30,998 nucleotides of DNA from an uncultured virus (IMG/VR IMGVR_UViG_3300028888_000090) (Duplodnaviria; Heunggongvirae; Uroviricota; Caudoviricetes; Crassvirales). The position numbers were made by a program, and so were the translations under genes. Numbering within the stretch: position 1 is the stretch's first letter; each line of letters begins with the position of its first letter. Shown piece after piece: positions 1 through 29,271 of the stretch. The notes below the pieces were generated by a model. The model was given only the letters and a program-made list of their open reading frames with translations, did no database searches and was not told the origin of the DNA. Where the stretch lies: the IMG/VR virus record IMGVR_UViG_3300028888_000090. One strand, given 5' to 3'.

Positions 1-214
1 TAACTTTAATACTATAAGTATGTAAAACTTGTTCTACCTCCCCTTTAGAAAGGGATTTGATTGGTATCTCGTTCCCTTTATCATCAGTTTTATACATTTG
101 TGATACAGCAAAATCACAACATTTTTTATTAAAGTGAGGACCATAATGAGATAGATAAATACTAAGATCTTCTGGCATCACTTCATAAGCAGTAAAATTT
201 TCTCTATTATGCAT
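1..214 (-). CDS. Partial hypothetical protein, truncated by the window edge (not in the ORF track)
   Basis: Hand-translated from the ATG at 214: MHNRENFTAYEVMPEDLSIYLSHYGPHFNKKCCDFAVSQMYKTDDKGNEIPIKSLSKGEVEQVLHTYSIKV..., open to base 1. The YLSHYGxHFNKK..FAVS motif resembles an uncharacterised Bacteroidetes phage protein family (from recall). Confidence 0.8.
   Translation of the reverse strand, partial: MHNRENFTAYEVMPEDLSIYLSHYGPHFNKKCCDFAVSQMYKTDDKGNEIPIKSLSKGEVEQVLHTYSIKV
34..55 (+). repeat. Dispersed GC-rich motif, copy 1
   Basis: CTACCTCCCCTTTAGAAAGGGA, inside CDS 1..214; one mismatch to the core. Confidence 0.75.
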
Positions 215-221
215 AATATTA

Positions 222-257
222 TAAATTAAGAGGGTAGTAAGAAGTGTTACTACCCTC
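222..257 (-). terminator. Intrinsic terminator-like hairpin
   Basis: Perfect 11-bp stem GAGGGTAGTAA/TTACTACCCTC (230-257) with a 6-nt loop, followed on the minus strand by TTAATTTA. It lies just after the stop of 267..491. Confidence 0.7.
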
Positions 258-266
258 AGGTTAAAC

Positions 267-491
267 TTACATACGACCTCTACGATAACGACTTCTGCTC
301 ATACGCTCACTTCTACGTACGCGTCTATCGTCATTAGAATCATCGTAATCATCATCACGATAATCAACGTCTTCATCTTCCATGCATTCTTCTAAAAGAT
401 CTTCAACATCTTCAATCTCTTCTCTCATTTTTTTAACTTTCTTTAAAAGATGTTTACCATCTTCTTCTTTACGAAATCTCATTATAAGCAT
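267..491 (-). CDS. Small hypothetical protein: helical N-terminus, acidic block, Arg/Ser-rich tail
   Basis: 74-aa ORF co-oriented with the operon, with AAAGGAG upstream of the ATG. Confidence 0.75.
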   Translation of the reverse strand: MLIMRFRKEEDGKHLLKKVKKMREEIEDVEDLLEECMEDEDVDYRDDDYDDSNDDRRVRRSERMSRSRYRRGRM

Positions 492-510
492 AATAATTCT
501 CCTTTCTTTA

Positions 511-1002
511 TTAATTGTTTCCAGACTTAGTAGCGTTAATAAATTCTTTCATCATATTTTTATATTCTGCAAGTTCCGCACGAAGAGCTTTAAGTTCTTC
601 ATTTTCTTGCTTTGCAGCTAATGTTCCATTAAGTTCATCAGCTATAGTAGAATATTGTTCATAAAGTCTTTTTTCAAGTTCGATATTACTAATAGCTCGT
701 TTCTTTGTATCAACCATTGAATTAACATGAACTTTAAGAGAATCTTTACTATCTGCTAAAATAAAACCTATAGAGCCAAAATCAGCAATCGAAATGTTAC
801 TGGGCACTTGTTTGAACTCACGATTTTCTCCGTTAATGGTTGCAGAAATATCTACAACCATACAAGGAATTTGAACTCCGTTATTTTTAATATAACTTGG
901 ATAAGGTGCACTAGTCTTAGTAATTGGAGCTGCAAACAATTTGAAATCTCCTCTTGTATCAAGACCATGAAGAATATTACCTTGTACTAAATTTGAAAAC
1001 AT
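511..1002 (-). CDS. Hypothetical protein with C-terminal coiled coil
   Basis: 163-aa ORF, tightly packed in the operon, with a heptad-like C-terminus (ENEELKALRAELAEYKNMMKEF). Confidence 0.8.
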   Translation of the reverse strand: MFSNLVQGNILHGLDTRGDFKLFAAPITKTSAPYPSYIKNNGVQIPCMVVDISATINGENREFKQVPSNISIADFGSIGFILADSKDSLKVHVNSMVDTKKRAISNIELEKRLYEQYSTIADELNGTLAAKQENEELKALRAELAEYKNMMKEFINATKSGNN

Positions 1003-1013
1003 AATGATTAATT

Positions 1014-1412
1014 TTAATTGTTAGTATTAGTTTCTGTTGTACTTTGAGTTGCTGCCGGAGCTGCAGGACCAAACGTCATAAGTTGAAGGATATTAGCAAC
1101 TTTATCATAATAGATAAAGTAAATGCCAGCACCAGTGAGTTGTTCAGCCGTAGCAGCTTCTCCACCAACAAGAGTCAAAGGTTGTGTAAATTCATTGGAG
1201 GCGAATAGGATTGGGAGAGTACCTGCTCCATCAGGAAGAGCAGTATTAAGTCTAAACAAAATTGCTCCATTACCATTAAGGAATCTAAAAGCTCTCTTAG
1301 GAATTCCTATTACAACATTGTCAGTATTAACTGTAATATTTGTACTTTCAATCAAAGGAATACCAAGTCTATTCGCAAAATTAAACGGATAATTAGTAGT
1401 AGCACCAAACAT
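1014..1412 (-). CDS. Hypothetical beta-rich protein
   Basis: 132-aa ORF with AGGAGGT upstream of the ATG and alternating hydrophobic, beta-strand-like segments. Confidence 0.8.
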   Translation of the reverse strand: MFGATTNYPFNFANRLGIPLIESTNITVNTDNVVIGIPKRAFRFLNGNGAILFRLNTALPDGAGTLPILFASNEFTQPLTLVGGEAATAEQLTGAGIYFIYYDKVANILQLMTFGPAAPAATQSTTETNTNN

Positions 1413-1430
1413 AATATTACCTCCTATAGA

Positions 1431-2384: not shown

Positions 2385-2453
2385 TTTAATTTCAAGTTTT
2401 AAGTTAGAATTAAGTTTACTACAATCTTTTATAATGCGCATTAAAAGATGGAA

Positions 2454-2461
2454 CAAAAGTA
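2454..2461 (-). promoter_or_regulatory. Bacteroidetes sigma-A -7 element (TACTTTTG)
   Basis: Matches TAnnTTTG, about 70 nt upstream of ATG 2384 and just downstream of a terminator. No clear -33 box. Confidence 0.5.
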
Positions 2462-2497
2462 ATCATAGTAGTTGGTGTGGAAGAATGATTTTAATAT

Positions 2498-2532
2498 AAA
2501 ACAAAAACGGCTAACTATCAAGTAGTTAGCCG
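2498..2532 (-). terminator. Intrinsic terminator
   Basis: 10-bp stem CGGCTAACTA/TAGTTAGCCG (2508-2532) followed on the minus strand by TTTTTGTTTT, downstream of the HTH gene. Confidence 0.85.
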
Positions 2533-2542
2533 CGAATGTCAA

Positions 2543-2564
2543 TTCCTTTCTACAGGGGAGGTAG
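2543..2564 (-). repeat. Dispersed GC-rich motif, copy 2
   Basis: Reverse complement is CTACCTCCCCTGTAGAAAGGAA; lies between the HTH stop codon and its terminator. Confidence 0.85.
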
Positions 2565-3376: not shown

Positions 3377-3398
3377 AATTGGATATGTTTTAGATGAT

Positions 3399-3510
3399 TA
3401 TTTGCCCGATTTAGGGTCAATCGTGACCTACAATCGAATTTTATACTGATGATTATAACTTATTCATAAAAGAAGTGAAACGCTCTTAAATCCGATTTCA
3501 AACTATACAA
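3399..3510. repeat. ~110-bp intergenic element, copy A
   Basis: Shares TATTTGCC, GTGACCTACAATCGA-TTTTATA, AACGCT and CGAWWTCAAAMTATACAA at near-identical spacing with 19887..19997. Confidence 0.8.
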
Positions 3511-3524
3511 GAACGTTTCACTTC
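3467..3524 (-). terminator. Long hairpin, possible terminator after the holin-like gene
   Basis: GAAGTGAAACGCTCTT (3472-3487) pairs with AAGAACGTTTCACTTC (3509-3524). The one mismatch is a G-U pair on the minus strand. 21-nt loop, followed by TTTTAT. Confidence 0.55.
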
Positions 3525-3539
3525 CATTACTATCAATAA

Positions 3540-3866
3540 CTACTTTGGCATAGTCTTATTAACTTGCTTATAATTAATACCTAATCTTTTACATAAAGGT
3601 CTAAATATAATATCCCAACTTACAGGAGCTAAAATAGCACTGTTAATAAGAAGTTTAACATCTTGACCAAGGAGATAATATACAACCCCCGTAGAAAGGA
3701 TGCATCCAAAAAGGATTAATCTTTTCATCCAAGTAGTAACTTCTTTATCTTTATTGAGTTCATCAACTAGTTTGATTACAAGATATGTAAGAACATTAAC
3801 AATAATGCAATATCCAAAATCAAAACTGTTGATTGTAGTATCAATAATTTGAGATATAATTTCCAT
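3540..3866 (-). CDS. Putative holin (small membrane protein, 2-3 TM)
   Basis: 108 aa with hydrophobic helices and a basic C-terminus. Function inferred from topology only. Confidence 0.5.
   Translation of the reverse strand: MEIISQIIDTTINSFDFGYCIIVNVLTYLVIKLVDELNKDKEVTTWMKRLILFGCILSTGVVYYLLGQDVKLLINSAILAPVSWDIIFRPLCKRLGINYKQVNKTMPK
3680..3700 (+). repeat. Dispersed GC-rich motif, copy 3
   Basis: ATACAACCCCCGTAGAAAGGA, inside the holin-like CDS. Confidence 0.8.
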
Positions 3867-3868
3867 AG

Positions 3869-4244: not shown

Positions 4245-4264
4245 AATTGTAATTGTTTAAGTAA

Positions 4265-6670
4265 TTATAAAGACAATGTGAACATTTCAGATACGAGATT
4301 ATCTAATACAGCTATAGCTTTAATTGTAAGTCCACTTTGGTATTGAATTGGAGTTGTATAAACTTGAGAACTTGTTGTTGGTGTTGTACCATCGGTAGTA
4401 TAGTAAATTGTACTTCTAATAGCTTTACAATGTAAATTATAGTAATCTGTATTATTATCTGTAGTAAGAGTAATATATGGTTTTAAACCTGCACTTGTAA
4501 ACCAATTACCTGTAAACTGTATATAACTTTTACTTGCATCATTATGGTCATACACGTAATTGATATTATCACTTAAATATCCATGCTTTACATATTCCCA
4601 TTTATTGTTATTATTAGAATTATATTCTAAAATTGATATTGTCCAGCAATCAAAAACATCTGCATTTGGTATAGTTATATGATCTTTAAGAGTAGTTTGC
4701 GTATGCAAATCAGTATATATTTTATTAGTACTGGATTTATATGTACCATTAAGATATACAAACATTTTGTAATAACATCCAATACCTGTAACACAACCAA
4801 AGTATAAAGCTAATTCTTTTGGGGTATTACAGCCAAATAACGGATATTGTATAATAGCATCATTACTTGAACCAAAAGAAATTGTTTCGCCATCGTCTTG
4901 ACTTACAACAAGTGGTGTTTCTAATAACATATCTTCACAAGAGTTATAAAAACTAGACTTAAAAACACCATTAGAATTAAACATTATAGGAAATTCTTTA
5001 AGAGGTGTATAAGCAAAAGCATTACTAAAGTTGGCTTTTAAATCAATTGCAGGAGGATATTCTAGAGCACTGTTACTAAAAAGAGATAAACAATAACCAC
5101 TCATATTATAATTGTATCTGATTGTAGATTTATTGCCTGAAAATAGTGAAGTGATCCAATCAGTTATGTTCATCGGACTTGCTTGTTCAGCATTAATATA
5201 ACCATTTATAGTAATACTTGTAAAAAGTGGTGAATAATTTAAATCTGTAAGATTATCATCTATTATATAATCCGGAAACAACAGAGCATTTAGATTGCCA
5301 CTTATACTACCGTGTATATTATCACGCCCTTCTATATAATGATTCACATTTAATTCTGAAAAAGACTTTAAATATAAAATTCCGGTACTAGGAATTTGAA
5401 TAACTTCTTGATTACCATTTGGAGTATGCCAAGTTATAGCATCTTCTGAATACCATATACGATATAAATATACATTACTGTTTGGATCAGCATTTAAAGT
5501 TATATAATTACTACTAGCTTGAGTAAATGCTATAGTTTTTGTTATATCTATATAATGATTAGAATTGTCTTTAGCGGAAATTGTAAATGTTAAAGTGTGT
5601 GATATCGTACAATCAACAATGAATCTTGAATTTAAATCATCAGTATATTCACCATTATCAATTTTTACTTTATAATCATAATTATTAGTGTCTAAATCAG
5701 TAATAAATTGTGGTATAAATCCAATATTATTGGAATCGATAGCATAAGCTTCAAATTCAATTTTTTGATTTATATTAAAATCTTCATGAACATTTTCTTG
5801 TGCTTCAGCTACAACAGTATTAGTTTCATCTAGAGCTCTAGCATATATGGTATAATCTAAATATGGAAATATACGTATGGTTGCAGAATTTCCATAAATA
5901 GTAGTCCAAGGACTATCATCAATTTTATATTGAAGGACTTGTTGATTAGTATATATATTATAGTCGTTACCTCCTTGATTGTGTATTGCTATACCTGGTT
6001 CTTCTGACAAACCACTTATGCTGGCAACAGCATTACCATAATTTGTGATAAGTTCAAAAGCAATAGTTCCGCTATATGTTTGTAAAAGACTAATCTGCAT
6101 ACTTAAAAGCATATCTCCAATATTAACTTCTGTACCAAGTATTAGAGATACATCTTCTAAAGTCATTTCATTTTCTTCTAGAAAGTCATTAGTAATAATG
6201 GTGTTATCCATAACTACATAACAATCGTTTTCTGTAATATAAGCAGAATTATCTAATACAGCATTATATAAAACATTGTTTATTTTGACTTTGTCTATTG
6301 TTACAGGAGAAGTAGCATCGTGTACTATAGTATATAGCATAATTTGAGTTTCATTACTGGTGCTCCTATATGAAGGTAGAATCATATCACCCATATTCAT
6401 ATTTAGTATCTCAATAGCACTATTATCGTCACTAGGATTATCACCACCAGGACTATAATTGTCTTGACTAACTGAAATAGTTGCAAGAGTCCAATAATCT
6501 TTATCAGATATTGGAATTTTACGAGGAACATCTTTAATAGCTTGATAAAATTCTATTTTACCATTTATCATATAATATACTACAGATAATCTTTCATATC
6601 TTTTATTATAATCGTGTTCTTCAAACAAAGCAGCTAATTGAACACGAATATCATTATTTTCTTCAGACAT
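4265..6670 (-). CDS. Multidomain accessory virion/adhesin-like protein with a C-terminal CHB_HEX_C/Fn3-associated domain
   Basis: 801 aa. The C-terminus STIYYTTDGTTPTTSSQVYTTPI..TIKAIAV is the classic chitobiase/Fn3-associated motif. The N-terminal Y..L.V...Y...VP..I.I...YW module is CBM5/12-like, and the central region is degenerate LRR-like. Confidence 0.7.
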   Translation of the reverse strand: MSEENNDIRVQLAALFEEHDYNKRYERLSVVYYMINGKIEFYQAIKDVPRKIPISDKDYWTLATISVSQDNYSPGGDNPSDDNSAIEILNMNMGDMILPSYRSTSNETQIMLYTIVHDATSPVTIDKVKINNVLYNAVLDNSAYITENDCYVVMDNTIITNDFLEENEMTLEDVSLILGTEVNIGDMLLSMQISLLQTYSGTIAFELITNYGNAVASISGLSEEPGIAIHNQGGNDYNIYTNQQVLQYKIDDSPWTTIYGNSATIRIFPYLDYTIYARALDETNTVVAEAQENVHEDFNINQKIEFEAYAIDSNNIGFIPQFITDLDTNNYDYKVKIDNGEYTDDLNSRFIVDCTISHTLTFTISAKDNSNHYIDITKTIAFTQASSNYITLNADPNSNVYLYRIWYSEDAITWHTPNGNQEVIQIPSTGILYLKSFSELNVNHYIEGRDNIHGSISGNLNALLFPDYIIDDNLTDLNYSPLFTSITINGYINAEQASPMNITDWITSLFSGNKSTIRYNYNMSGYCLSLFSNSALEYPPAIDLKANFSNAFAYTPLKEFPIMFNSNGVFKSSFYNSCEDMLLETPLVVSQDDGETISFGSSNDAIIQYPLFGCNTPKELALYFGCVTGIGCYYKMFVYLNGTYKSSTNKIYTDLHTQTTLKDHITIPNADVFDCWTISILEYNSNNNNKWEYVKHGYLSDNINYVYDHNDASKSYIQFTGNWFTSAGLKPYITLTTDNNTDYYNLHCKAIRSTIYYTTDGTTPTTSSQVYTTPIQYQSGLTIKAIAVLDNLVSEMFTLSL

Positions 6671-7474: not shown

Positions 7475-10400
7475 TTAAGGTTGATTACTAATAATAGAAC
7501 TTGATTGTTTTAATTGCAATACATAATTACCTGAAGAATCAACTGTTAATACTTTACCAGCATCAGCAACAGTCGGAGTAGGAAGATTAGGAAGAAGATT
7601 ATAAAGCGATGTTATACTTCTGACTCTTTCTTCCAAAGAATGCAAATAAAAATCATTTACAACAAAATCGGAAACTTTTGAACCAACAACTAGAGTTCCA
7701 CCAAAATCACCCATTATGTGAGCTTGATATTTTCCAAAAGGTTGTATTATACCAGCAGTACCAGCAGGAATTGGATTAAATAATAGTGTATCTAATGTAT
7801 TTAATTGTTGAGTGCCTCCTGCTACTACATCTTTCCAATAATAATGATTTAATGTTGTTGTTCCTTGTTGATAATCAAAACAAGAAAATTGAACATAGTT
7901 GGCATTTGAAGGACTTTTTATTACTTTACGTAGTGGTGTAAAATAAATATCTCCAACAAAGCCGTCAGGAATTCGCATATAAGCAAGAAGATAAACTTCA
8001 GATGTATTAGCTGTTGTATCAAAACGAGCATCTATAGGCCAAGAGCAATTTGTTGCAAAAGCAAATGTTGCTGTTGGAGGAGTGTCAACAACAGCGGCAA
8101 TATAATAAGAAATTATTTCATTATTTATAGAGTCGTTTATTGTTAGTTTTCCAACAATATTTCCCTTTGTAGAACGAGCGTGACACAAACCTATATATCT
8201 TCCTGTTTCGTTAGCAGTTTTTGTCCAATGATATACATTAGTATGATTATAAACAGCAGACGCTGGACAAAAATCACTTATATCAACAAGAGTCATATTT
8301 ACACTGTTCAATTCACATAACACATTATAGCTATAAGCAACTATGGCAGTGCTTGAATCTCCCTTTGTTTGTATAGCTATATCTTTACTTGTAATTCTAT
8401 GATTACTTTTTGATGAAATAACTATGCGATTATTAGTTGTATCTTTTTCTAGTGTTATACCAGTTCCTTGCTTGAAATCAAGATTTACATTTGTACTTTG
8501 GTCTGCACCAAAAGATGTTAAAGCTTCTTCATTTACTTGTATATTAAGATTACCATTGTTTGGTATTGGACTTGCAGCACTAACATGATTAGCTATAGCA
8601 TAAAAACTATTAACAGTATACACGTTTGTTGCTGTATTCTTTTCTACAAACAAATGTAATAGAAGTTCAACATAATCTTTTGAATGAAGATTTTGATTAA
8701 ACAGTCTTTTTGTTATAACATATTGTGTTGTAGATGCTTGAATTGTTGTAGTAAAGTCTTCACCAGCATCTGTTAAAGATACTCTATCACCATTTGAAAA
8801 ATTAAGCTTATAGTCAATATCTCTTTTAGCTATTAAAGCTTCAAGTATTTCTACTGCTGTTTTATTACAAGTACAATTTTCATTAACAACTGTTAAATAA
8901 TTATATCCGCTAGTAAAGTCGACAACAAGAGGAAGAGAAGGTTTATTCCAAATATAAGAAGAACTGTTGGGATTTGTTTGATTCCAATCAGCTTGACTAA
9001 AATTATTAACAAGTCCCCCAGTAGCTGTTAAAGAACTAGGATAAGTAGCACCAGGTTTATTAGAGTAAGCTTCAAGATAAACTTCATATCTTTGATTACC
9101 TATAATGGAATACAACACAACACTATAAAGATACGATTCATGGTTTGTTCCTGGAGCTGAAACATTAGTACCTAAATCAGATTCACTAAGATGTAACCAA
9201 TAAGTACGACCAAGTTCTGTAAAACGAACATAATAAGATAATTTTTTACCAGTTTTAACTGCAGCAACAATTTCGTCAGCTGTTTTGTTACAAGTTAGTA
9301 TTTCAGAACTAAATGTCTCGCTTGGACTACTTAAACTACTATAAAGTTCTACAATATATTCATCAATAACAGGTTTGTTTTTTATATAATCAAGAGCAGA
9401 TACATTGGTTTGATTCCAATCAGCTTGAGGAAGACTATAATAAAAACCTGTAACAATTTCGTTTAAATCAGAGTCTGGATCATAATTTGCAGATAATGTG
9501 ATATTATAATAAGAAGCTGTTTGATTATTAATTTGAGCAGCCTCATCATAAACACGTAATTTAATATAAGAATACAAATATGTATCACTAATTTCTATTC
9601 CTGATAAACTAGAAAACACAGTTTCTAGTTCTCTATATACATACAAGTCTTCACTATTACTATCAGAAACTAGAGTTTTAAGATAATATTTAACTTTTTT
9701 CTGAGCTTTATAAGCATTGAATAAATCTTGTGCTGTAAATTCAAATGTAAAACCTGGAGAAACATCTCTTGCAGCTGCGTAAAGATCTTTATTACAAACT
9801 ATTATTGCATTATATATATCATCTGCAATTAGAGGTTTGTTTTTAATATAGTCAAGAGCGTGAGTATTATCTTGATTCCAATCTGCTTGAAGTTGACTAA
9901 GACCTGTTGTTTGAGTAATAGTAATATCATCATTAACATTATTAACATAATGTTTAAGTTGGAAAAGAATATTTACTTTATCATTGCCATACTCATAAAA
10001 CAAGAAAGTTTCATAAGAATATAGGATATTATTACTTATAGTCCATTCTGCATTAGCTTGATTTAATATAAAAGATGCGTGTTGTACTGGAATAGCTAAT
10101 ACAAAAACAGCTTTCTTACCATCTAGACAAATATTCTCTGTAATATCTGCTGCACTCTTATCACAAGTAAACACGTATGGATCTTGTTCAGTATCAGAAC
10201 CGGTTCTAGTAATAGTAATAAAGTATACACCTAAATCTTCTGGTATTGTAGGTTTATGTTTTATATAATCATCTTGTGTTGGATCTGTTTGATTCCAATC
10301 AGCTTGAACATTCTGAAGACCACTAACTAATGCAGTTACAGGAAATTCAATTGTATTACCATTTTGAAGAGTAAGAATGATATTTCCTGTCTGGCTATTA

Positions 10401-12004
10401 TAAGTACCGTTTACAACAACACTTTCAAGAGGTAAATCTATAAGTTGTGGTGTTCCAAGAGGTGAACCGTTTTGGTCAAGAAGTTGTCCTGTTATAACAA
10501 AAGTAGAATTATCAATCGACAAACTTAAAGAAGCAGCATAAGGTGTTGAACTAGCTAAAGCACCAATATCAGAAGCTTGAGTAGGAACATTGATATTAAT
10601 TGTTGTATCTATTCCAGAGGCAGGATCAAAAGTATCTAAAACAACATTGTTTTGTTTAATAGTTAAACTTCCAATATCTTCTAAATTTGCATTACCTCCT
10701 TCAGGTAGATGGTGTTGTAAACTACCATAAGTTTCAACATACCAATTTCTAAACTGAATAGGATTTAAATCTGACACAAATCGTAAATAAGCACCATATC
10801 CAGTAGGAAGTCCAGAAGATAATTCAGTACCAATTAAAGTAGTATATCTTTTGTTAGTAGTAGCATTATCTCCTTGCATTAAAACAGTAACACGTTCTGT
10901 TGCTGATGCTCCGGGAGTAGCAGATATAAGATGACTAGTAAACAGAAGACTGTTCTTAAATCCAAAACCAGTAGCATTTACAATAGCCTGCTCTTCATCT
11001 GACATTTCATTCAGAAATCTAGATTCTATAGAATCTTTATTAGCTAAAACAGGAGTAGTATAAAAACCATTACTAACTTCTACATTATATTTATCTTTAG
11101 AAGCTATATAATCTAAAAGATCTTGATATTCACTTGGAGCAGGAATGTGCCAATTTGTAGGGGCAATACCTTTCATTTCACCAGCTGTTTCTGTTGATGT
11201 TTCTCCATTAGATACTGCAGAAAAGTTATATTTAAGACCTTTAGATTCAGTTAAAGAACTTTCATTATTTGTTAAATAATAATAGGGTATAGTAGTACTA
11301 TTTAATTCAGTTCCATTATTAACAATAGAAGAGCCATTAGCGATAGGAGTACCATCAGGAAGTTTAGTACATCTATAGTTCTCTGCAAGCCAAACTTTAT
11401 CTCCAACAATTACAGCACCATACCAGTTATCATCGAGATCTTTTACAGCATTTGGAAAATAAAAACCATCAAAAATAGCATCTGGATCTACCGGCGTTGG
11501 AATTTCTGGTTTATTCTTAATAAAGTCAAGAGCATCAGGATTTGTTTGATTCCAATCAGGTACAGGAAAAAAACGATCAGCATGAGAAATATTATAGCCT
11601 ATACCCTGTTGATTATGCGCAGGACGCCATGTAGCATTTACTGTAAATACAATATATGTTTCTCTCAAAAGATAATATAATTGAAATATACCTCGTGTAT
11701 CACCATCACTGCGTCTTTGAAGATTTGTTTTCCATGCAATTAAAGAAAATCTTACATCATCATTATTATTTTTACATAATACTTTCCATGCAAGAGTTTT
11801 TTTATCATCAATAGCTGCTGTCAATATTTCTTCTGCTGTTTTATCACAAGAAACGTTTAATGACGTTATCTCAGTTATATCGCTAATGTCTGAGCTTAAT
11901 GTGATAGTAAAAATATCATCAAAAACATCTAATTCTCCATCTCCTCTTACATATTGTTTTTCAGTACCACCGAAATCAATCTGTTTTCTTTTAATTTTTT
12001 TCAT
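7475..12004 (-). CDS. Large modular tail fibre/receptor-binding protein with a FISUMP (Fib_succ_major) domain
   Basis: 1509 aa with five DWNQ..YIxNKP fibre repeats and five CxK(T/S)A.EI-type modules. FISUMP motif KDLDDNWYGAVIVGDKVWLAENY...GLKYNF...APTNWHIP..SEY...NATGF...YLRFV at about 10770-11450. Confidence 0.75.
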   Translation of the reverse strand: MKKIKRKQIDFGGTEKQYVRGDGELDVFDDIFTITLSSDISDITEITSLNVSCDKTAEEILTAAIDDKKTLAWKVLCKNNNDDVRFSLIAWKTNLQRRSDGDTRGIFQLYYLLRETYIVFTVNATWRPAHNQQGIGYNISHADRFFPVPDWNQTNPDALDFIKNKPEIPTPVDPDAIFDGFYFPNAVKDLDDNWYGAVIVGDKVWLAENYRCTKLPDGTPIANGSSIVNNGTELNSTTIPYYYLTNNESSLTESKGLKYNFSAVSNGETSTETAGEMKGIAPTNWHIPAPSEYQDLLDYIASKDKYNVEVSNGFYTTPVLANKDSIESRFLNEMSDEEQAIVNATGFGFKNSLLFTSHLISATPGASATERVTVLMQGDNATTNKRYTTLIGTELSSGLPTGYGAYLRFVSDLNPIQFRNWYVETYGSLQHHLPEGGNANLEDIGSLTIKQNNVVLDTFDPASGIDTTININVPTQASDIGALASSTPYAASLSLSIDNSTFVITGQLLDQNGSPLGTPQLIDLPLESVVVNGTYNSQTGNIILTLQNGNTIEFPVTALVSGLQNVQADWNQTDPTQDDYIKHKPTIPEDLGVYFITITRTGSDTEQDPYVFTCDKSAADITENICLDGKKAVFVLAIPVQHASFILNQANAEWTISNNILYSYETFLFYEYGNDKVNILFQLKHYVNNVNDDITITQTTGLSQLQADWNQDNTHALDYIKNKPLIADDIYNAIIVCNKDLYAAARDVSPGFTFEFTAQDLFNAYKAQKKVKYYLKTLVSDSNSEDLYVYRELETVFSSLSGIEISDTYLYSYIKLRVYDEAAQINNQTASYYNITLSANYDPDSDLNEIVTGFYYSLPQADWNQTNVSALDYIKNKPVIDEYIVELYSSLSSPSETFSSEILTCNKTADEIVAAVKTGKKLSYYVRFTELGRTYWLHLSESDLGTNVSAPGTNHESYLYSVVLYSIIGNQRYEVYLEAYSNKPGATYPSSLTATGGLVNNFSQADWNQTNPNSSSYIWNKPSLPLVVDFTSGYNYLTVVNENCTCNKTAVEILEALIAKRDIDYKLNFSNGDRVSLTDAGEDFTTTIQASTTQYVITKRLFNQNLHSKDYVELLLHLFVEKNTATNVYTVNSFYAIANHVSAASPIPNNGNLNIQVNEEALTSFGADQSTNVNLDFKQGTGITLEKDTTNNRIVISSKSNHRITSKDIAIQTKGDSSTAIVAYSYNVLCELNSVNMTLVDISDFCPASAVYNHTNVYHWTKTANETGRYIGLCHARSTKGNIVGKLTINDSINNEIISYYIAAVVDTPPTATFAFATNCSWPIDARFDTTANTSEVYLLAYMRIPDGFVGDIYFTPLRKVIKSPSNANYVQFSCFDYQQGTTTLNHYYWKDVVAGGTQQLNTLDTLLFNPIPAGTAGIIQPFGKYQAHIMGDFGGTLVVGSKVSDFVVNDFYLHSLEERVRSITSLYNLLPNLPTPTVADAGKVLTVDSSGNYVLQLKQSSSIISNQP

Positions 12005-13182: not shown

Positions 13183-13806
13183 TTAGGTGTTGAAAATTTT
13201 ATTTGAAACGTAAATAGAATATTCACCAATAAGAATATTTATTTTGTCATTAATGTGAGCTATTCTTGCAATAGCATCTTGACCATCATAAATTATAGGT
13301 ATAACCGCGTCTGCAATTTCCTTTGTCCATTCCTCTTTAAGTTTAGATGCAACATTTATTTCGTTAATTTCATATACAGATAAAGCAGAATAAAGTTTAT
13401 AATATTCAGTATTAATTACTTTAGCTAAATTATTACTTATTAATTCTTTGTTTTTATCAATGTTATTGTGAGCAATAATATAAGAACATTCTTGAGATAT
13501 CTTAAAACCAAGTGCTTTAAATCCTAGTTGAATTGCTTTATCACATTGACGAATTTCTCTTTTTTCTGCATCTTCAAAAGTTTTATTTAGAACAGCATTA
13601 AGTTTAGCTATGTTATCTCCCATTTCTTTCATTGCTTTACTCATTTCAAGCAATGGTTTATCTTTAGTTTTAGCCTTGAAATAATCTATCAATCTTGTAA
13701 TTAAAGTATAACAAATGAAAACACAACTAGAAATAATAACTGTAACGTAAGAAGAATTGCGAACACTTTCGTTTATAATTTCATTAATTGTTTTTAATTC
13801 TTCCAT
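13183..13806 (-). CDS. Membrane-anchored helical protein (207 aa, start revised to ATG 13806)
   Basis: N-terminal TM segment YVTVIISSCVFICYTLI followed by a coiled coil. The GTG at 13824 lies inside a hairpin stem. Confidence 0.7.
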   Translation of the reverse strand: MEELKTINEIINESVRNSSYVTVIISSCVFICYTLITRLIDYFKAKTKDKPLLEMSKAMKEMGDNIAKLNAVLNKTFEDAEKREIRQCDKAIQLGFKALGFKISQECSYIIAHNNIDKNKELISNNLAKVINTEYYKLYSALSVYEINEINVASKLKEEWTKEIADAVIPIIYDGQDAIARIAHINDKINILIGEYSIYVSNKIFNT

Positions 13807-13811: not shown

Positions 13812-13847
13812 TAAAATCTACCACCCCTGTAGAAGAGGTGGTAGATT
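13812..13847 (-). terminator. Terminator/attenuator hairpin after the capsid gene block
   Basis: 11-bp stem AATCTACCACC/GGTGGTAGATT (13815-13847); the minus-strand 3' arm ends ...GATTTT. The loop carries the dispersed motif. Confidence 0.7.
13818..13838 (+). repeat. Dispersed GC-rich motif, copy 4
   Basis: CTACCACCCCTGTAGAAGAGG, in a hairpin arm and loop. Confidence 0.8.
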
Positions 13848-13859: not shown

Positions 13860-14840
13860 TTAGTCTTGTGTTGCAGCAGTAATCGCACTATTAGTATCAG
13901 CAGTCAATTCCTTTTCCTTAACAGCAGTCAATATAGCATCAATTGCTGAAATCTTAGTAACAGGAACGGCAATATAAACATTTTGCCAAACTCTTTCATC
14001 ACGAGTTTTGGAAGCATCTCTTCCAACTTTGAAACGAAGAGTATAAACAGCGTAACCGGTCGTACTATATTTACCATTGGTAGCGTCAGTACCATTACGA
14101 TTAGCACCAGAATCATTCAGAGTGTAATCAGCAACGGCTTCAGGATAACCAGGAATAAACTCACGACCTTCAGCAGCAGTATGGTAAAAACCTTTACCTG
14201 CAGCGCAGAAAGAAGCAAGATGTTGAATATCAGCTTTGTCACCAATAGGTTTCTCAGCATGAGTTACAGTAAGAGATGTTCCAGTAAGATCATCAATAGC
14301 CACAACTTCCCAATCCTCACCAACATTATTACAAGTAATAGTCAATTGACCATTGCTTCTAGTAGTAGTAAAAGGAAATTTGTCATTGACTTTATTATCC
14401 ATAGCTGTTTTAAAAGCAGCAGCTTCAGCATAAGCGGCATTATCTGTTTTAGCTACGATACCAACAGTCCAACTATTTCTCTCGTGAGGAACAACACCTT
14501 TCTTAAAGAAACGAAGTGTATATTCTTCACCAGGAGTAGTAGTAGGCATTGTGAAAACTACAGAGAAAGTAGCACCTTTAAAAGGCAAAGCTTTAACTAC
14601 TGACAAAGTATCAACATCAACTTCCGGAATAATAAAAGGATGCTGACCATTAGGGCGACCAAGAGCAATCGCGAAATTTTTAGTAGGAGCACTGGAAGTC
14701 AGAGCAGTACCACTACCCAATTCAAAGAAAGTAATAGCACCATCAGCAAGACCTGACAAATCATTAACATTACCATCAGTCAGACCATAATTGAGAATGC
14801 TGTTCTCTCCTTGTTCTTTTACAATTAAAAGTTGTCTCAT
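13860..14840 (-). CDS. crAss-like conserved virion protein (gene 73-like, probable auxiliary capsid protein)
   Basis: 326 aa, beta-rich, third gene after MCP in the conserved Crassvirales capsid block, followed by a terminator. Confidence 0.6.
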   Translation of the reverse strand: MRQLLIVKEQGENSILNYGLTDGNVNDLSGLADGAITFFELGSGTALTSSAPTKNFAIALGRPNGQHPFIIPEVDVDTLSVVKALPFKGATFSVVFTMPTTTPGEEYTLRFFKKGVVPHERNSWTVGIVAKTDNAAYAEAAAFKTAMDNKVNDKFPFTTTRSNGQLTITCNNVGEDWEVVAIDDLTGTSLTVTHAEKPIGDKADIQHLASFCAAGKGFYHTAAEGREFIPGYPEAVADYTLNDSGANRNGTDATNGKYSTTGYAVYTLRFKVGRDASKTRDERVWQNVYIAVPVTKISAIDAILTAVKEKELTADTNSAITAATQD

Positions 14841-20059: not shown

Positions 20060-20338
20060 TTATAGCATAGCAAAAAGAATTAGCACAAAAGCTACAATAG
20101 CACCAATACTAATACGGAGAGTTTCTTTAAGATTAAACCTTGTTCCAAGACAAGCTAAAATAGCTGTAGAAACTAAGCTTACAATAGCACCCCCGTAAGA
20201 AGGATTAAATGATATACACCATCCACCAAATATGATTGCGTTAATTACAACGCCACTAATAAAAAGAACCCAAGTTGCACTGCTAATAGACAACAACTGT
20301 TCTTTTACTTTGTTAAATAATTCTTTAATCTTCTTCAT
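20060..20338 (-). CDS. Small 3-TM membrane protein (92 aa, start revised to ATG 20338)
   Basis: The MKKIKELF start overlaps the FTR stop (ATGAAGAAGATTAA); three hydrophobic helices. Confidence 0.7.
   Translation of the reverse strand: MKKIKELFNKVKEQLLSISSATWVLFISGVVINAIIFGGWCISFNPSYGGAIVSLVSTAILACLGTRFNLKETLRISIGAIVAFVLILFAML
20185..20204 (+). repeat. Dispersed GC-rich motif, copy 5 (variant)
   Basis: TAGCACCCCCGTAAGAAGGA, inside the membrane-protein CDS. Confidence 0.6.
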
Positions 20339-20555
20339 TTTTAATTTCAGTTTGATGAACATAAAGTTTACAATGACAAATATTATTTTGTAGATAATCA
20401 GAACAAGGACATTGGTCATGACCATATCGGTCTTTAATATAAGTAGGACAATGCCCTTCATTTATAATAACACTATTGATGATGTCAGTAAGTTCTTCAT
20501 CATCAGGATTAAGGACAAATCCTTTTTTACGAACAATTTTAACTAATGTACTCAT
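20325..20555 (-). CDS. Ferredoxin-thioredoxin reductase catalytic-subunit-like protein
   Basis: LNPD...G.CP(T)...CPC...CHC.LY matches the FTR beta-chain Fe-S motif except at the first CPC. Confidence 0.8.
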   Translation of the reverse strand: MSTLVKIVRKKGFVLNPDDEELTDIINSVIINEGHCPTYIKDRYGHDQCPCSDYLQNNICHCKLYVHQTEIKNEED

Positions 20556-25471: not shown

Positions 25472-25824
25472 TACAGAGCAATCAATAACAATAAAAGTAA
25501 GAAAAAAGCACTAGCACCACTGCCAGCGCCTATAGCAACATTTCTTTGCTTTTTAACTTTATTTATACTATCTTGACAAGTGTTCTCACAAGAATTAAGA
25601 TTTAGTTGAAGAGCATTAATCAAAGCAGAATCTGTTTTAAGAATACCATGAAGTTCTTCATTGATGGCTTTTTCATAATCTAGTTCAACCATTTTAGCGT
25701 TTGCAATTCTTAAATCTTCAATTGCAATTAACACACTATCTTTTCTTGGATTTTGCGACCAACTTATAAAACAACTCGATAGTAGCACTATCATCAAGAT
25801 TATATATCGTTTCAATCGTATCAT
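25471..25824 (-). CDS. Putative spanin component (signal peptide/lipobox, coiled coil, C-terminal TM)
   Basis: N-terminal signal containing LSSC, a heptad region and a hydrophobic C-terminus; overlaps the upstream gene by 89 bp in a different frame. Confidence 0.55.
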   Translation of the reverse strand: MIRLKRYIILMIVLLSSCFISWSQNPRKDSVLIAIEDLRIANAKMVELDYEKAINEELHGILKTDSALINALQLNLNSCENTCQDSINKVKKQRNVAIGAGSGASAFFLLLLLLIAL

Positions 25825-26050
25825 TCTTAGTTATTTCAAGATGTTTAACTTTAGCGTGTTGTCTATCTTTAGTAACATAAAGAGTATCTATGGTACTCTT
25901 TTCTACGGGGGAGGTATAATTAAACTTATTTTCTTTTTTAGCTTTATTGTATCCTACAGTATAACCAAGAGCAAACCATATACTAACAAAGAAAAGAAGA
26001 ATAATATACAGTATAATATATCCTCCGTATTTATCCCAAATCTTTTTCAT
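25736..26050 (-). CDS. Putative inner-membrane spanin (Rz-like)
   Basis: N-terminal TM anchor followed by a periplasmic part; directly after the endolysin-like gene. Confidence 0.55.
   Translation of the reverse strand: MKKIWDKYGGYIILYIILLFFVSIWFALGYTVGYNKAKKENKFNYTSPVEKSTIDTLYVTKDRQHAKVKHLEITKNDTIETIYNLDDSATIELFYKLVAKSKKR
25896..25917 (-). repeat. Dispersed GC-rich motif, copy 6
   Basis: Reverse complement is ATACCTCCCCCGTAGAAAAGAG; inside the i-spanin-like CDS. Confidence 0.8.
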
Positions 26051-26651
26051 CTAATAAAGTATAAGTGAAACTATTACCATAAAGAGTACTTTGTTTTTTA
26101 CAAAGTGCAATAAACTTAGCAAAATCCTTAGGGTCGGCAAAAACTTGACAACCAGCAGAATACATATCAATAGTTTCTCTAGTAAAACCTTGATTACTTC
26201 TATGAATGTTTATACCAAACAAACCTTCTTTAATAGTTTGAGGAAACATATCATATACATTATCCATATTACCATCGCGATAAACTTTAACAGGTTTTGC
26301 TTGAACTAAAGCTTCATATTCTCCTTTATGTTTACCAAGTTTCCAACATCCGCGATATTGACCTGGAACAAGAATTGCAGTACCTTTAGGATTACCAAGT
26401 TTCTTACGCATATAATAATATCCAGGTTCTGTAGTGATATTATAATAAACACTTTTCAAACCTGAAGCGTCTCTATAAAGAACAGCAAGAATGTCATCGT
26501 ATTTATTTGTAATAACATTGTTGTTATTCTTTCTAACACCAATAATGTTGAGGTTATAAAAACCTTTAGCAAAATAAGCATAACCTTTCTTACTTAAAAT
26601 AAGAGGAAGATTAGCCTTTGCAACCTTATAAAAAAGATTATTCTTTTTCAT
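26031..26651 (-). CDS. Putative endolysin, L,D-transpeptidase (YkuD)-like cysteine peptidase
   Basis: GINIH-x14-SAGCQV matches the H-x14-17-S-x-G-C catalytic signature; adjacent to spanin-like genes. Confidence 0.7.
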   Translation of the reverse strand: MKKNNLFYKVAKANLPLILSKKGYAYFAKGFYNLNIIGVRKNNNNVITNKYDDILAVLYRDASGLKSVYYNITTEPGYYYMRKKLGNPKGTAILVPGQYRGCWKLGKHKGEYEALVQAKPVKVYRDGNMDNVYDMFPQTIKEGLFGINIHRSNQGFTRETIDMYSAGCQVFADPKDFAKFIALCKKQSTLYGNSFTYTLLDEKDLG

Positions 26652-26654
26652 TGT

Positions 26655-27647
26655 TTAATCAAATAATGTTGGTTGTTCAACAGGTTGTTTTGCTTTTAGT
26701 GCCTTAAGAGAAAGAAGTCTATCATTGAAAACAGCATCAGCTTCATTACGCAAATAGTTAATGCGAAACCAATTAATAATTTCATCTTTTGTTTCATCAA
26801 CGTGGTAACCATCTTTATCACGTAAAGGTTGTCCATATTTGTTAAGAATAAAAGGAGAACCAATATGACAAAGACCTAAACCAACACAAGGTATTTCAAG
26901 AATTCTTTCAGTAAGTCTAGCATAAATACTTAACTGCATTGTATAGTGACTTCCATTACACTCATCAAGATGATTTAACGGTGGAAGCATTTTTTCATTC
27001 TTTCTAACCCAAAGATTAGTTAATTGATTAGGAATAGTAGTTCTATCTTTTTGATAGTAACCACTTTCAAATTTAAGACCATCACGATTAGTCTTCCAAT
27101 CAAGAATAACAAAATCAGTAGGACGAATACATAAAATATCAATAGTACCACTAATCAACAACTCAGGGTCAAAAACTCCTATTTCAGAATATATAGTATA
27201 ACCTCTATCAACATAGAATTGAAACACTCTATAAATCTCATCATATTTATTATTTGTAGCTTCTTTAAATTGTTCCACATCTAAAGGGTTAACACTTAGA
27301 TTTGGAATATCAGCTACAGTAATACAACGACCACTTTCAAGTTGTTCAAGATATCTAATAGCTTCTTTAAATTTACTAACATTCTTTATAGCATCTTCTA
27401 AACCATTATGTGTATCGGTACCTCTTCTACAGGCTTCATCCTTTATCTGATTCCATTGACGAAGAATCTCTTTTTCACTAACACCTTGTTCTTTAGCTTT
27501 CTTATGCGCCCAATATTTTACATCAAACTTAGGAGCATATTGACCAATTATAGTAGTAGTTGAAATATATTCATTACCATTACTATCGGTGTATTTATGT
27601 GGTCCTTCGTCAAAATAAAGATGTATATTTTTATAAATATCTTTCAT
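26655..27647 (-). CDS. PD-(D/E)XK family nuclease
   Basis: HKY...ISTTTII, GT.TH, SE..V, SGTIDIL, ILDWKT and Y..QLS.Y motifs; a conserved crAss gene near TerL. Confidence 0.85.
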   Translation of the reverse strand: MKDIYKNIHLYFDEGPHKYTDSNGNEYISTTTIIGQYAPKFDVKYWAHKKAKEQGVSEKEILRQWNQIKDEACRRGTDTHNGLEDAIKNVSKFKEAIRYLEQLESGRCITVADIPNLSVNPLDVEQFKEATNNKYDEIYRVFQFYVDRGYTIYSEIGVFDPELLISGTIDILCIRPTDFVILDWKTNRDGLKFESGYYQKDRTTIPNQLTNLWVRKNEKMLPPLNHLDECNGSHYTMQLSIYARLTERILEIPCVGLGLCHIGSPFILNKYGQPLRDKDGYHVDETKDEIINWFRINYLRNEADAVFNDRLLSLKALKAKQPVEQPTLFD

Positions 27648-28058
27648 TTATTCAAACATTATGTCATTATCTTTTTTAACAACTTGTGCAACTATTTCTC
27701 CAGTTTCATTATTTTCATCAACAATTTCTGTATTAACAGAATTAGCCATTTGGTATAATTTTCTTATACGTTCAAAATCCCATTTTGCTCTATCTAATAC
27801 AGAATTATCTACTTTTACACAAATAGTTTTTGAATGATAATCGTTATTTATATAATTAATAATTTTTTCAATAACACCGCTTATTGTAATATGTAGTTGC
27901 TCTTCATTAATTATATGAAGTATAGTATCATAAGATAACACATCACCTACTTTTAAATCAAAATGTTGTTCAAAGTCTCTTTCTTGAATATTTTGAAGTA
28001 CACTGTTTAAACGACAACCATCGTTATTTATAACATTAATTCTTGTAATCTTTTTCAT
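27648..28058 (-). CDS. Hypothetical protein
   Basis: 136-aa ORF abutting the nuclease start. Confidence 0.7.
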   Translation of the reverse strand: MKKITRINVINNDGCRLNSVLQNIQERDFEQHFDLKVGDVLSYDTILHIINEEQLHITISGVIEKIINYINNDYHSKTICVKVDNSVLDRAKWDFERIRKLYQMANSVNTEIVDENNETGEIVAQVVKKDNDIMFE

Positions 28059-28079
28059 AATTTATGTTTTATTAAGATT

Positions 28080-28694
28080 TTACATATAATTATCAGCATC
28101 CATACTACTACTAACTACATTACCACCACGAGACAATTCTGTTTCTTTCTCATAAAGGAGATTTTGTTTAGCTTCTTCAAGTTTCTTAATAAGAGAAGGA
28201 ATTTCACCTGCTTTCTTATTAACTTGATCTACAAGACCTAATACAACAGAAATAGTTTCAAGGTTTGTTTCAGTATTAAGTTTTTCATTAAGTAATTGAT
28301 TAACTTTATCAATACTTAAATTTATATTATGGATACCTTTTAAAATATTCTCTACTGTTCTTCCTGCTTCTCCTATATTCTCATTATAATATCTTTTAAT
28401 AAGTTTAATTACAAGAGCATCAGGAATGTAATCTGCTGGTAAATCAGCTTGTTCAATAGCCATTTTAAGAGATTCAGCATCACTTAAACCTGCTTGTTTA
28501 GCAGGAGACTTAGGATCACCAAGATAATAAACTACAATAGCTTCTTTAACATATTGTTCTTTATGTTTAGATTTATCTCTACGATAAAGTTCACGAATAT
28601 CTTTATCAAGAAGCTGTGCAGTATTAGGAGGCACCGGCATCCCATTATCATCAATAGTGATTAGTTGAGTAATATCAAGTTTAACTTTTGCCAT
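28080..28694 (-). CDS. crAss-like conserved helical protein (gene 86-like; small terminase candidate)
   Basis: 204 aa with RD.SK.K and DPKSP motifs and a coiled-coil C-terminus ending in RGG. The function is inferred from position. Confidence 0.5.
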   Translation of the reverse strand: MAKVKLDITQLITIDDNGMPVPPNTAQLLDKDIRELYRRDKSKHKEQYVKEAIVVYYLGDPKSPAKQAGLSDAESLKMAIEQADLPADYIPDALVIKLIKRYYNENIGEAGRTVENILKGIHNINLSIDKVNQLLNEKLNTETNLETISVVLGLVDQVNKKAGEIPSLIKKLEEAKQNLLYEKETELSRGGNVVSSSMDADNYM

Positions 28695-28703
28695 AATTTA
28701 TTC

Positions 28704-29201
28704 TTAAGAAATAAAAGGAGTTAAATTAATACAAGAATAACACATAAATCTAGCAAAAGCATCTTTATCTGAACATTTACTAGCACGTTTATCTTTTAGA
28801 TATTTATTATATTGCCATCTATGTTTCTTAACAAACATACTAGTTTGATACTTATACAATCTCTCACGAGCAACATCTGCACCAATATTAGCATTAAGTT
28901 CTCTTTTAAACACTGCATATTGTTCAGGTTCCATCGTATCTCTGGCAGTTGCTACAAGTTCTTTTCCGTTAATTTCTTTAAACTTTTGCTTATGAGCAGG
29001 AACTCTCATATTTCCAATATAAGGAATACCTGTCCAACGTCCTTCTTGTAGAAAAGCCTCAGCATCTCTTTCACATTGTTCAATCAAAGAATCTAGAATT
29101 TCTTTATCAACACTATTATCTTCAATTGAATCAATAATATCTTTCTTTCTACAAACAGTTACTTCATAACCTCCATTAGGAAATCTAAAAATTTCTGACA
29201 T
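28704..29201 (-). CDS. Hypothetical protein, possibly divergent HU/IHF-like
   Basis: Two helices followed by FLQEGRWTGIPYIGNMRV, which weakly resembles the HU L..G..V.I.GFG.F motif. Confidence 0.4.
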   Translation of the reverse strand: MSEIFRFPNGGYEVTVCRKKDIIDSIEDNSVDKEILDSLIEQCERDAEAFLQEGRWTGIPYIGNMRVPAHKQKFKEINGKELVATARDTMEPEQYAVFKRELNANIGADVARERLYKYQTSMFVKKHRWQYNKYLKDKRASKCSDKDAFARFMCYSCINLTPFIS

Positions 29202-29231
29202 AACTTAATAGCTTTAGCAGGTTAATTGGAA

Positions 29232-29271
29232 TAAAGATTAACTCCACTACCCCCGTAGAAAGGTGGAGTTA
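29232..29271 (-). terminator. Intergenic hairpin (weak terminator/attenuator)
   Basis: 9-bp stem TAACTCCAC/GTGGAGTTA (29239-29271); the 15-nt loop holds the dispersed motif; the U-tract is weak. Confidence 0.5.
29247..29263 (+). repeat. Dispersed GC-rich motif, copy 7
   Basis: CTACCCCCGTAGAAAGG, in a hairpin loop. Confidence 0.8.

Follow-up and report, generated by a model that had tools for sequence, protein, structure and literature searches.

A strand-specific DNA word repeated along crAss-like phage genomes, and its possible role as a fixed start signal for DNA synthesis

What does a long, GC-rich DNA word do when it recurs in the genes and gaps of a phage genome with a G+C content of about 31%? 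The question is raised by a 30,998-nucleotide stretch of the uncultured virus IMGVR_UViG_3300028888_000090 (Crassvirales), referred to here as the window. The structural module of a crAss-like phage fills the window, with PHROGs matches to the major head protein, the portal and the large terminase, and every gene lies on the - strand. An earlier note, made from the letters of the window, had listed seven copies of a motif with the core CCCCYGTAGAA, five of them exact, and had proposed that the motif is selected at the DNA level. The exact core indeed occurs five times, against a mean of 0.00 in 100 dinucleotide-preserving shuffles (0/100 with any match). When the window is scanned with a 25-nt weight matrix derived from the 89 copies of four relatives, exactly seven sites emerge, scoring 20.5–35.4 bits, while all else stays below 8 bits and simulated sequence gives 0–0.2 matches. 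The list of seven sites was therefore correct and complete, though the starts assigned to them carried about 3–6 bases of flank before the core. The analysis shows that the word is real and that selection acts on it as DNA. It is asymmetric, it takes no account of gene direction, and its copies are evenly spaced along each strand. The best explanation is that it represents this lineage's spelling of a strand-specific signal kept by the Intestiviridae, with a shorter form in crAss001.

The word spans about 17–25 nt, is non-palindromic and can be written A-S-C-W-CCCC-Y-GTA-purine run-(A)TG. The 31 exact copies found in the window and two GenBank relatives yield the consensus A-S-C-W-CCCC-Y-GTAGAA-R-R with a weaker (G)(A)T(G/T) tail, and a more general form of the consensus is A-S-C-W-CCCC-Y-GTA-R-R-A-R-R. 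Its information profile is sharp from -4 to +12. The 5' half is tightly specified, R-R-purine positions come next, and C/T is the sole variable position of the core. Since the flanks of the copies are unrelated past about 25 nt, the word is not a mobile element. Core spellings differ by lineage (GTAGAA, GTAAAA, GTAAGA and GTRGAG), and the 5' flank has a flavour of its own in each genome, such as TAGCTC in the relatives G002 and G003, TACAAC in G008, GACCTC in MH552500 and AAGCTC in G011. G008 carries two such flavours, with TACAAC on both strands and a CTCGCC-type flank (6 copies) on the - strand only. These lineage- and genome-specific flavours imply a phage-encoded reader that co-evolves with the word.

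Within the window, copy 1 (34..58, core 40-50, + strand, 20.6 bits) has the degenerate core CCCCTTTAGAA with one mismatch and lies antisense within the open reading frame (ORF) 2-214 (-), over the codons AAA GGG GAG. Copy 2 (2540..2564, core 2548-2558, - strand, 30.0 bits) is exact, CCCCTGTAGAA, and intergenic, beginning right after the stop of ORF 2565-2864. Copy 3 (3680..3704, core 3686-3696, + strand, 28.3 bits) is again exact, CCCCCGTAGAA, and antisense within ORF 3540-3866 (-), over ACG GGG GTT. The highest score belongs to copy 4 (13818..13842, core 13824-13834, + strand, 35.4 bits), an exact CCCCTGTAGAA between the stop of ORF 13860-14840 on one side and the ATG at 13806 on the other. 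Copy 5 (20184..20208, core 20190-20200, + strand, 20.5 bits) carries the variant spelling CCCCCGTAAGA with two mismatches, whose GTAAGA is shared with relatives, and sits antisense within ORF 20060-20461 (-), over TAC GGG GGT. Copy 6 (25893..25917, core 25901-25911, - strand, 31.0 bits), exact with CCCCCGTAGAA, is in sense within ORF 25736-26050 (-), where it is read as ACC TCC CCC GTA GAA. This ORF is conserved at the protein level in 12 related loci, and the place of copy 6 is occupied in relatives by a (+)/(-) convergent pair. Finally, copy 7 (29244..29268, core 29250-29260, + strand, 27.9 bits) is an exact CCCCCGTAGAA in the gap between ORF 29279-29818 and ORF 28704-29201.

Three copies are thus intergenic (2548, 13824, 29250), three are antisense in ORFs (40, 3686, 20190) and one is in sense, so that five of the seven lie on the strand opposite the genes. 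The earlier note had placed four copies inside coding sequences on either strand and had quoted the codons that they occupy as GC-rich and unusual. The quotations are exact, and in five large genes GGG, CCC, ACG and TCC each make up 2–3% of their own codon family. A protein repeat, which that note had also discounted, was rejected because the copies code for KGE, STGV, SYGG and TSPVE in different frames and strands.

The nearest named relatives of this phage belong to the subfamily Obtuvirinae of the Intestiviridae and share about 77% nucleotide identity with it in the genes for the major capsid protein (MCP), portal and TerL. Exact copies number 14 in MH552500 (Wotdevirus), 12 in MT774394 (Hacihdavirus) and 0 in MT774384 (Fohxhuevirus), and a control pattern, read backwards, is found 0 times in all three. 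A further 30 IMG/VR records were chosen, in two collection scans, among many crAss-sized contigs with several matches. All of them hold at least one exact copy (18 with 9–26 and 12 with 1–6), and the reversed control gives 0 in 30/30. Complete Obtuvirinae genomes carry 9–26 exact copies per ~90 kb, and low-copy relatives use other spellings of the word. One such spelling, AGCC(G/C)CCCCGTAAA, is found in cr8_1 and in one clade of loci anchored on the MCP gene. The cr8_1 genome has about 25 copies, and the 10- and 11-mers concerned occur tens to hundreds of thousands of times above expectation. The record nearest to the window, a 9-kb fragment, contains 2 copies. Among the other contigs encountered, JAZSIL010000189.1 (14.9 kb, from a metagenome-assembled genome labelled Bacilli) encodes an endolysin-like protein 73% identical to the product of window ORF 26031-26651, and is probably a crAss-like phage contig that was binned into a bacterial genome.

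Selection on the DNA itself is most evident where the word overlaps genes. Sets of 300 shuffles that keep each protein and its codon usage were compared with the copies inside long ORFs of four whole genomes, which hold 12, 16, 12 and 18 in-gene copies against shuffled means of 0.21–0.33 and maxima of 2–3. The same comparison confined to the window is underpowered, with 1 in-gene exact copy against 0.02 expected and 41 of 2000 shuffles reaching that number; its gene list left out ORF 25736-26050. Intergenic DNA takes a disproportionate share, with 32 of the 89 sites in the four genomes although only ~10–12% of their sequence is non-coding. On the best explanation, the word occupies intergenic DNA wherever it can and resorts to tolerant stretches of genes elsewhere. 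The earlier note had named three checks of its proposal, namely frequency against codon-preserving shuffles, presence in relatives and constraint on the in-gene copies. The first two favour the motif by the counts just given, and the third does so through copies kept at fixed places.

Such places were followed in loci anchored on the MCP gene, of which 80 were collected and 73 entered the weight-matrix counts (72 with usable anchors, and the window). Together these cover 1.10 Mb and contain 220 words, a density of 2.0 per 10 kb where simulated sequence gives 0.027. Of the 70 loci that cover a place about 1100 nt before the MCP start, 54 have a copy there, antisense within the gene that precedes the MCP gene. 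The coding sequence around it is N/D/G-rich and hardly alignable, yet YCTTCTACGGGGGRGCT is retained. A counterpart of the window copy at 13824 is found in 29 of 50 loci. Copies are retained at orthologous positions across genera, and one orthologous word lies antisense within the primase gene of MH552500 at 25800(+), G002 at 79733(-), G003 at 82600(-) and G008 at 72574(+).

Individual copies nevertheless turn over. Ten loci, the window among them, lack the copy at -1100, and in eight of these a substitute lies within 2.5 kb (6 on the same strand, 2 on the other); a same-strand word occurs within the 5 kb surrounding that place in 53 of 57 loci. As lost copies are replaced nearby, what is conserved is density or spacing and not particular places alone. 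Copy 5 of the window is probably a substitute of this kind, standing in for a copy ~720 nt away that most relatives keep in the gene upstream of the MCP gene.

The motif had originally been described as orientation-independent, and in this respect the description has to be revised, since the word is strand-specific and its spacing in relatives is regular per strand, well beyond what the pooled positions would give. The evidence comes from relatives because a 31-kb window with 7 copies is too short for the test. With weight-matrix matches, the coefficient of variation (CV) of the spacing in MH552500 is 0.31 on the + strand (n = 10) and 0.25 on the - strand (n = 13). The per-strand mean of 0.28 compares with 0.70 after shuffling the strand labels, and four genomes combined give P < 0.00025. 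Regularity per strand beyond that of the pooled positions points to a reader that acts on one strand and not to a symmetric duplex-binding protein. Gene direction is ignored, with 24 of the 89 sites in sense, 33 antisense and 32 intergenic, which bears out the earlier view that the word does not act as an ordinary promoter. On both strands the arrays extend over almost the whole genome, without a clean strand switch, and one strand is depleted in the structural module. Copies on opposite strands also approach each other more often than expected, with 11 pairs no more than 300 bp apart against 4.67 expected (P = 0.006). Eight of these pairs are convergent and three divergent, and their spacings include 28, 40, 86, 97 and 109 bp.

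The same arrangement extends to better known members of the group. In the prototypical human crAssphage (BK010471), a de novo k-mer search recovers CCCCGT(A/G)GAG inside a ~25-nt word with 31 copies, 18 on the + strand (CV 0.31, P < 0.0002) and 13 on the - strand (CV 0.43, P = 0.001). The per-strand mean CV is 0.37, against 0.73 with shuffled labels (P < 0.0002). Two close convergent pairs of crAssphage, 28077(+)/28174(-) and 95745(+)/95866(-), lie just upstream of genes annotated as RepL-like initiators, 28718-29272 and 96138-96794, at module junctions, and may mark origin regions. In crAss001, a member of the Steigviridae (MH675552), a shorter word CTCCAGAAG occurs 27 times, with 17 copies on the + strand (CV 0.45, P = 0.0008) and 10 on the - strand (CV 0.54, P = 0.038). 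The crAss001 genome also holds 36 runs of at least 10 T (or A), ~100 times expectation. No comparable word was detected in Cellulophaga phage phi14:2, where the top k-mers (k = 7–12) reach at most ~20 times expectation and a gapped search that recovers the crAss001 word returns codon-periodic patterns only.

Could RNA structure define the element instead? Six of the seven window copies were folded against shuffles, and a hairpin as the defining feature was rejected because only one of them forms a significantly stable hairpin of its own. That copy is copy 4, embedded in a hairpin with a 13-bp stem (13816-13846; -21.4 kcal/mol, z = -6.3). On the gene strand a U-run comes next, and this copy probably doubles as a terminator. 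The terminator-like hairpin near copy 2 (2507-2533, - strand; 11-bp stem and T-run) begins 14 nt downstream of the copy and is not part of the word; the 91-nt stretch folded here gives -21.7 kcal/mol (z = -3.6). The weak hairpin around copy 7, with a 9-bp stem, is not significant (-13.5 kcal/mol, z = -1.6), and the in-gene copies among those folded are no more stable than shuffles (z from -1.3 to +0.2). An intrinsic terminator was rejected as well, given that only the copy at 13824 lies within a hairpin with a U-run and that the terminator near 2548 is a separate element. An Rfam scan of the window gave a sub-threshold match to the mir-787 precursor as its sole result (3470-3526, - strand; 29.3 bits against a gathering threshold of 57, E = 0.048). 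This was taken as chance, and a known RNA family was set aside accordingly. No tRNAs were found in the window.

A few further features of the window are worth recording. Another terminator-like hairpin with an 11-bp stem occupies 230-257 (-), in the gap between ORF 267-491 and ORF 2-214. Two tail-region proteins carry carbohydrate-related domains and are likely receptor-binding proteins. One, of 801 aa (4265-6670, - strand), has Fn3_assoc and CHB_HEX_C_1 at its C-terminus, and the other, of 1509 aa (7475-12004, - strand), has a Fib_succ_major domain. The 10-kb stretch of their genes is the sole long word-free gap in the window.

What kind of reader would maintain such a word? Our preferred answer, held tentatively and at somewhat less than an even chance, is that the copies may mark fixed positions where the phage's own primase, a divergent DnaG-like enzyme, starts its primers. 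Several properties suggest a signal that starts template-directed synthesis on single-stranded DNA, with priming as its likeliest form, namely the length and asymmetry of the word, its per-strand spacing, its indifference to genes, the nearby replacement of lost copies, the lineage flavours, and the sharply specified 5' half followed by purines. A phage replication enzyme would then recognize each copy on single-stranded DNA, whether unwound or displaced, and begin a new strand at that fixed point. Within the word, A-S-C-W-CCCC-Y-GT on the 5' side and the loose purine run after it would be the part recognized and the part copied first, with either strand a possible template. Each strand could be primed about every 7–9 kb, whichever way a fork or a strand-displacement front moves.

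The likeliest enzyme would be the divergent DnaG-like (TOPRIM-type) primase, paired with a Dda-like SF1 helicase and a family B polymerase and not with a DnaB-type helicase; a primase that works free of a DnaB-type helicase may depend on sites of high affinity. The window does not include the replication module, and the primase is known here from relatives, which encode a family B polymerase, a Dda-like SF1 helicase, a single-stranded DNA-binding protein and the divergent primase. In MH552500 the primase matches PHROG 12622 'DNA primase' (E = 5e-60) and shares 45% identity with crAssphage gp21. The enzyme has an invariant D-F-D motif, and Toprim_2 and Zn_ribbon_DnaG are carried by its Atlas neighbours. 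The N-terminal 148 residues are found in 28 of 50,697 phage records, all of them Intestiviridae. A broader claim can be built on this, in which the Intestiviridae, among them the human gut's most abundant phage, would have a hard-wired priming map of long start signals, overprinted on genes in even arrays on each strand and read by a cysteine-less DnaG-like primase without a DnaB-type helicase, with start positions fixed genetically rather than stochastic. We regard this broader claim as doubtful, although possible.

A number of observations weigh against the priming proposal. The strong per-strand regularity depends on the variant copies that weight-matrix matches add. With exact or regex matches the per-strand CVs are 0.40–0.79 and several strands are not significant, the strand-label shuffle gives P = 0.017 in five genomes (two of them close relatives), and pooled spacing is at least as regular as per-strand spacing. 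In two loci, L297 and L306, the word at the -1100 place (~1120 nt before the MCP start) lies on the strand opposite to the one used by about 50 relatives, as if a ~20-nt signal within coding sequence had been inverted in place, which shows that neither orientation is essential at any one place. The structural module has few sense-strand copies, a scarcity for which priming gives no explanation. Arrays on both strands almost everywhere do not fit a single bidirectional origin with lagging-strand-only priming, and strand displacement, or forks travelling both ways, would have to be assumed. A spacing of 7–9 kb is, moreover, long for Okazaki fragments.

The enzyme raises difficulties of its own. 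The primase matches no Pfam family and no PDB sequence, cysteine pairs are absent from its N-terminal region, and its role in template recognition is an assumption. Phage phi14:2 encodes a DnaG-like primase homologue (30% identity to crAss001 gp80) yet has no over-represented word, so that carrying such a primase alone does not imply the word. Conversely, the N-terminal domain of the Intestiviridae primase is not detectable in crAss001 by tblastn, and that phage has a DnaB-type helicase, yet the shorter word is present. A phylogenetic profile for the reader singled out no candidate.

Among other explanations, the one that survives best, though we think it unlikely, makes the word a duplex binding site for a phage architectural, organizing, packaging or ejection protein, with regular sites that organize or mark the genome, as the earlier note had proposed. 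Spacing pooled over both strands is indeed regular with exact or regex matches (CV 0.41–0.69, maximum gap 7.3–10.7 kb, P from <0.0002 to 0.04). Copies can also change strand in place, and two of the eight substitutes for the -1100 copy lie on the other strand. The lineage flavours would fit any co-evolving phage protein. A long, non-palindromic and strictly asymmetric word is less expected of such a site, and the per-strand regularity of MH552500 and crAssphage far exceeds that of their pooled positions (0.28 against 0.70 and 0.37 against 0.73). Nor have the proposed binders held up. The earlier note had suggested as candidates the products of 2565-2864 and 28704-29201, labelled helix-turn-helix (HTH) and HU-like. 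The HTH label has a sub-threshold HTH_17 match (E = 0.008) as its sole basis, no support was found for the HU-like label, and the identity of either product as a DNA-binding protein is thus unsupported. Proteins annotated as an 'IHF subunit' (MH552500 70762-71448 and BK010471 60006-60710) were rejected as readers because they match PF25702, 'Phage tail ring protein 2' (E = 1e-53 and 6e-57). The ring-protein gene of MH552500 sits in an unannotated 1.8-kb gap. Phage phi14:2, furthermore, shows no detectable word although its genome encodes the ring protein and the virion proteins.

Less probable again is a promoter for a phage RNA polymerase (RNAP), for instance the virion two-barrel RNAP acting on preferred single-stranded templates, whose products would be RNAs of a non-coding, antisense or primer kind. 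With a specific upstream part and a purine-rich stretch that would be transcribed first, the word resembles in form the promoters of single-subunit RNAPs, and the flavours are lineage-specific. The phi14:2 enzyme gp66 is described as transcribing single-stranded and denatured DNA efficiently, but the same report found no common upstream motif for early gp66 transcripts and assigns middle and late promoters to the host sigma type (10.1101/2020.03.07.982082). Strand-specific RNA sequencing of crAss001 shows three modules that follow ORF orientation (PMC8375218). The word, for its part, has no orientation preference relative to genes (24 sense, 33 antisense), and phi14:2 carries the virion RNAP without a detectable word.

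A site for a phage nickase or processing nuclease, comparable to the single-strand interruptions of T5, phiKMV-like and tf-like phages, is very unlikely. Like the nick sites, the word is asymmetric, conserved and multi-copy with lineage variants, and co-evolution of nickase and site has been proposed for tf (PMC3517423). The TAC/GTA core loosely recalls TACT/RTGMC and CCTA/CTCC. That paper, however, places the sites of tf, T5 and phiKMV-like phages all on one strand and unevenly (PMC3517423), whereas the present arrays are regular on both strands. Opposite-strand copies lie as close as 28, 40, 86, 97 and 109 bp, and constitutive nicking at all copies is implausible because such pairs would give double-strand breaks.

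Scarcely better placed, and marginally less probable than nicking, is a Chi-like recombination signal that would be read by a translocating helicase-nuclease, protecting phage DNA or directing repair from any break. Strand specificity, the presence of both orientations, regular spacing and the excess of convergent pairs (8 against 3) would all suit such a signal, and the phages encode RecT and a PD-(D/E)XK exonuclease. Known Chi sites are 5–8 nt long. At 17–25 nt, with phage-specific flavours, the word is far longer, and the mosaic breakpoints between G002 and G003 are not enriched at words (~3 of 27 boundaries within 100 nt, against ~1.6 expected). The crAssphage and cr8_1 genomes are, in addition, annotated with Gam-like nuclease inhibitors. 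The weakest alternative, to which we give very little credence, is a word without phage function. It would have spread by a molecular drive, for instance a selfish nuclease or biased gene conversion, an origin that has been put forward for the DNA uptake sequences of bacteria. Like those sequences (PMC1939737), the word is enriched in non-coding DNA (32/89 sites in ~11% of sequence) and in unconstrained coding regions. Drive, though, predicts neither even per-strand spacing nor nearby replacement of lost copies, and the uptake sequences are not evenly spaced (PMC1939737). Retention at orthologous positions across genera also counts against it.

Whatever its function, the signal is strongly selected, widespread and easily tested in the cultured phages crAss001 and crAss002. 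If the copies are fixed start sites, they would amount to a replication scheme not described for any tailed phage, in which ~25 long, sequence-specific signals for initiation limit how essential genes can be encoded. They would then offer direct access to the DNA replication of the commonest human gut phages, a lineage-specific signature for classifying crAss-like contigs, and a clean system for studying a second code atop the protein code. The earlier note knew of no described function for the motif, and no published description of the word turned up in searches of the openly accessible literature, some of them made with the exact 11-mers of the present phage and crAssphage. New here are the Obtuvirinae spelling and its variants, the strand flips at a fixed position, the measured turnover, in which lost copies are replaced nearby, the excess of close pairs on opposite strands with the resulting argument against nicks, the apparent absence of the word from phi14:2, and the identification of the 'IHF-like' proteins as tail ring proteins.

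Among known systems, the closest in mode of action are the template sites of DnaG- and T7-type primases and the RSF1010 sites ssiA and ssiB, and the closest in genomic pattern are DNA uptake sequences and phage nick motifs. The word lacks a defining feature of each. Primase template sites are short, being based on 5'-GTC-3' in T7, CTG in E. coli and CTA/TTA in Firmicutes. Under the priming proposal the word would resemble sites of the DnaG and T7 gp4 type in being read on one strand of single-stranded DNA and in joining a specific part to one that is copied from a purine onwards. Its complement contains YTA followed by C and a G-run, and the phage encodes a TOPRIM-like primase. Sites of that type, however, are 3–5 nt long and dense by chance, whereas the word is 17–25 nt long, rare, evenly spaced and overprinted on genes. 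The primase concerned has an N-terminal region without zinc-ligand cysteines.

Promoters of the T7/T3/SP6 group of RNAPs are ~20 nt long, highly conserved and multi-copy, with a purine-rich start and lineage variants that co-evolve with the polymerase. The word matches them in length, conservation, copy number, lineage variants and a purine-rich part. These promoters point with the genes, unlike the word, which is antisense in 33 of 57 genic copies and is carried by phages without a T7-like RNAP.

The RSF1010 sites are long, sequence-specific priming signals on opposite strands, read by the primase RepB' without a DnaB-coupled primase (PMC8567376). Their pairing is echoed by the enrichment of close opposite-strand pairs in crAss-like phages. 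They consist, however, of just two 40-nt inverted repeats, which form hairpins at a single origin and are served by an AEP-type primase (PMC8567376), whereas the word has ~25 copies genome-wide, mostly without a hairpin, in phages with a TOPRIM-like primase. The nick motifs of T5, phiKMV-like and tf/LUZ24-like phages are likewise short, asymmetric, conserved, multi-copy words, but they are confined to one strand and unevenly placed (PMC3517423), while the arrays described here are regular on both strands and include pairs 28–109 bp apart.

DNA uptake sequences (DUES, comprising USS and DUS) offer the nearest likeness in distribution. They are over-represented and non-palindromic, occur on both strands and within ORFs yet are enriched in non-coding DNA, and form some inverted pairs (PMC1939737). 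They are bacterial, however, serve DNA uptake, occur about once per kb and are not evenly spaced (PMC1939737), whereas the carrier of the word is a lytic phage, with about one copy per 3–4 kb and regular spacing on each strand. Compared with the words of crAssphage and crAss001, the present one differs in its Obtuvirinae spelling, ASCW-CCCCY-GTAGAA-RR, and in belonging to a sheep-gut lineage, and it shares with them the core form CCCC-Y-GTA-purines.

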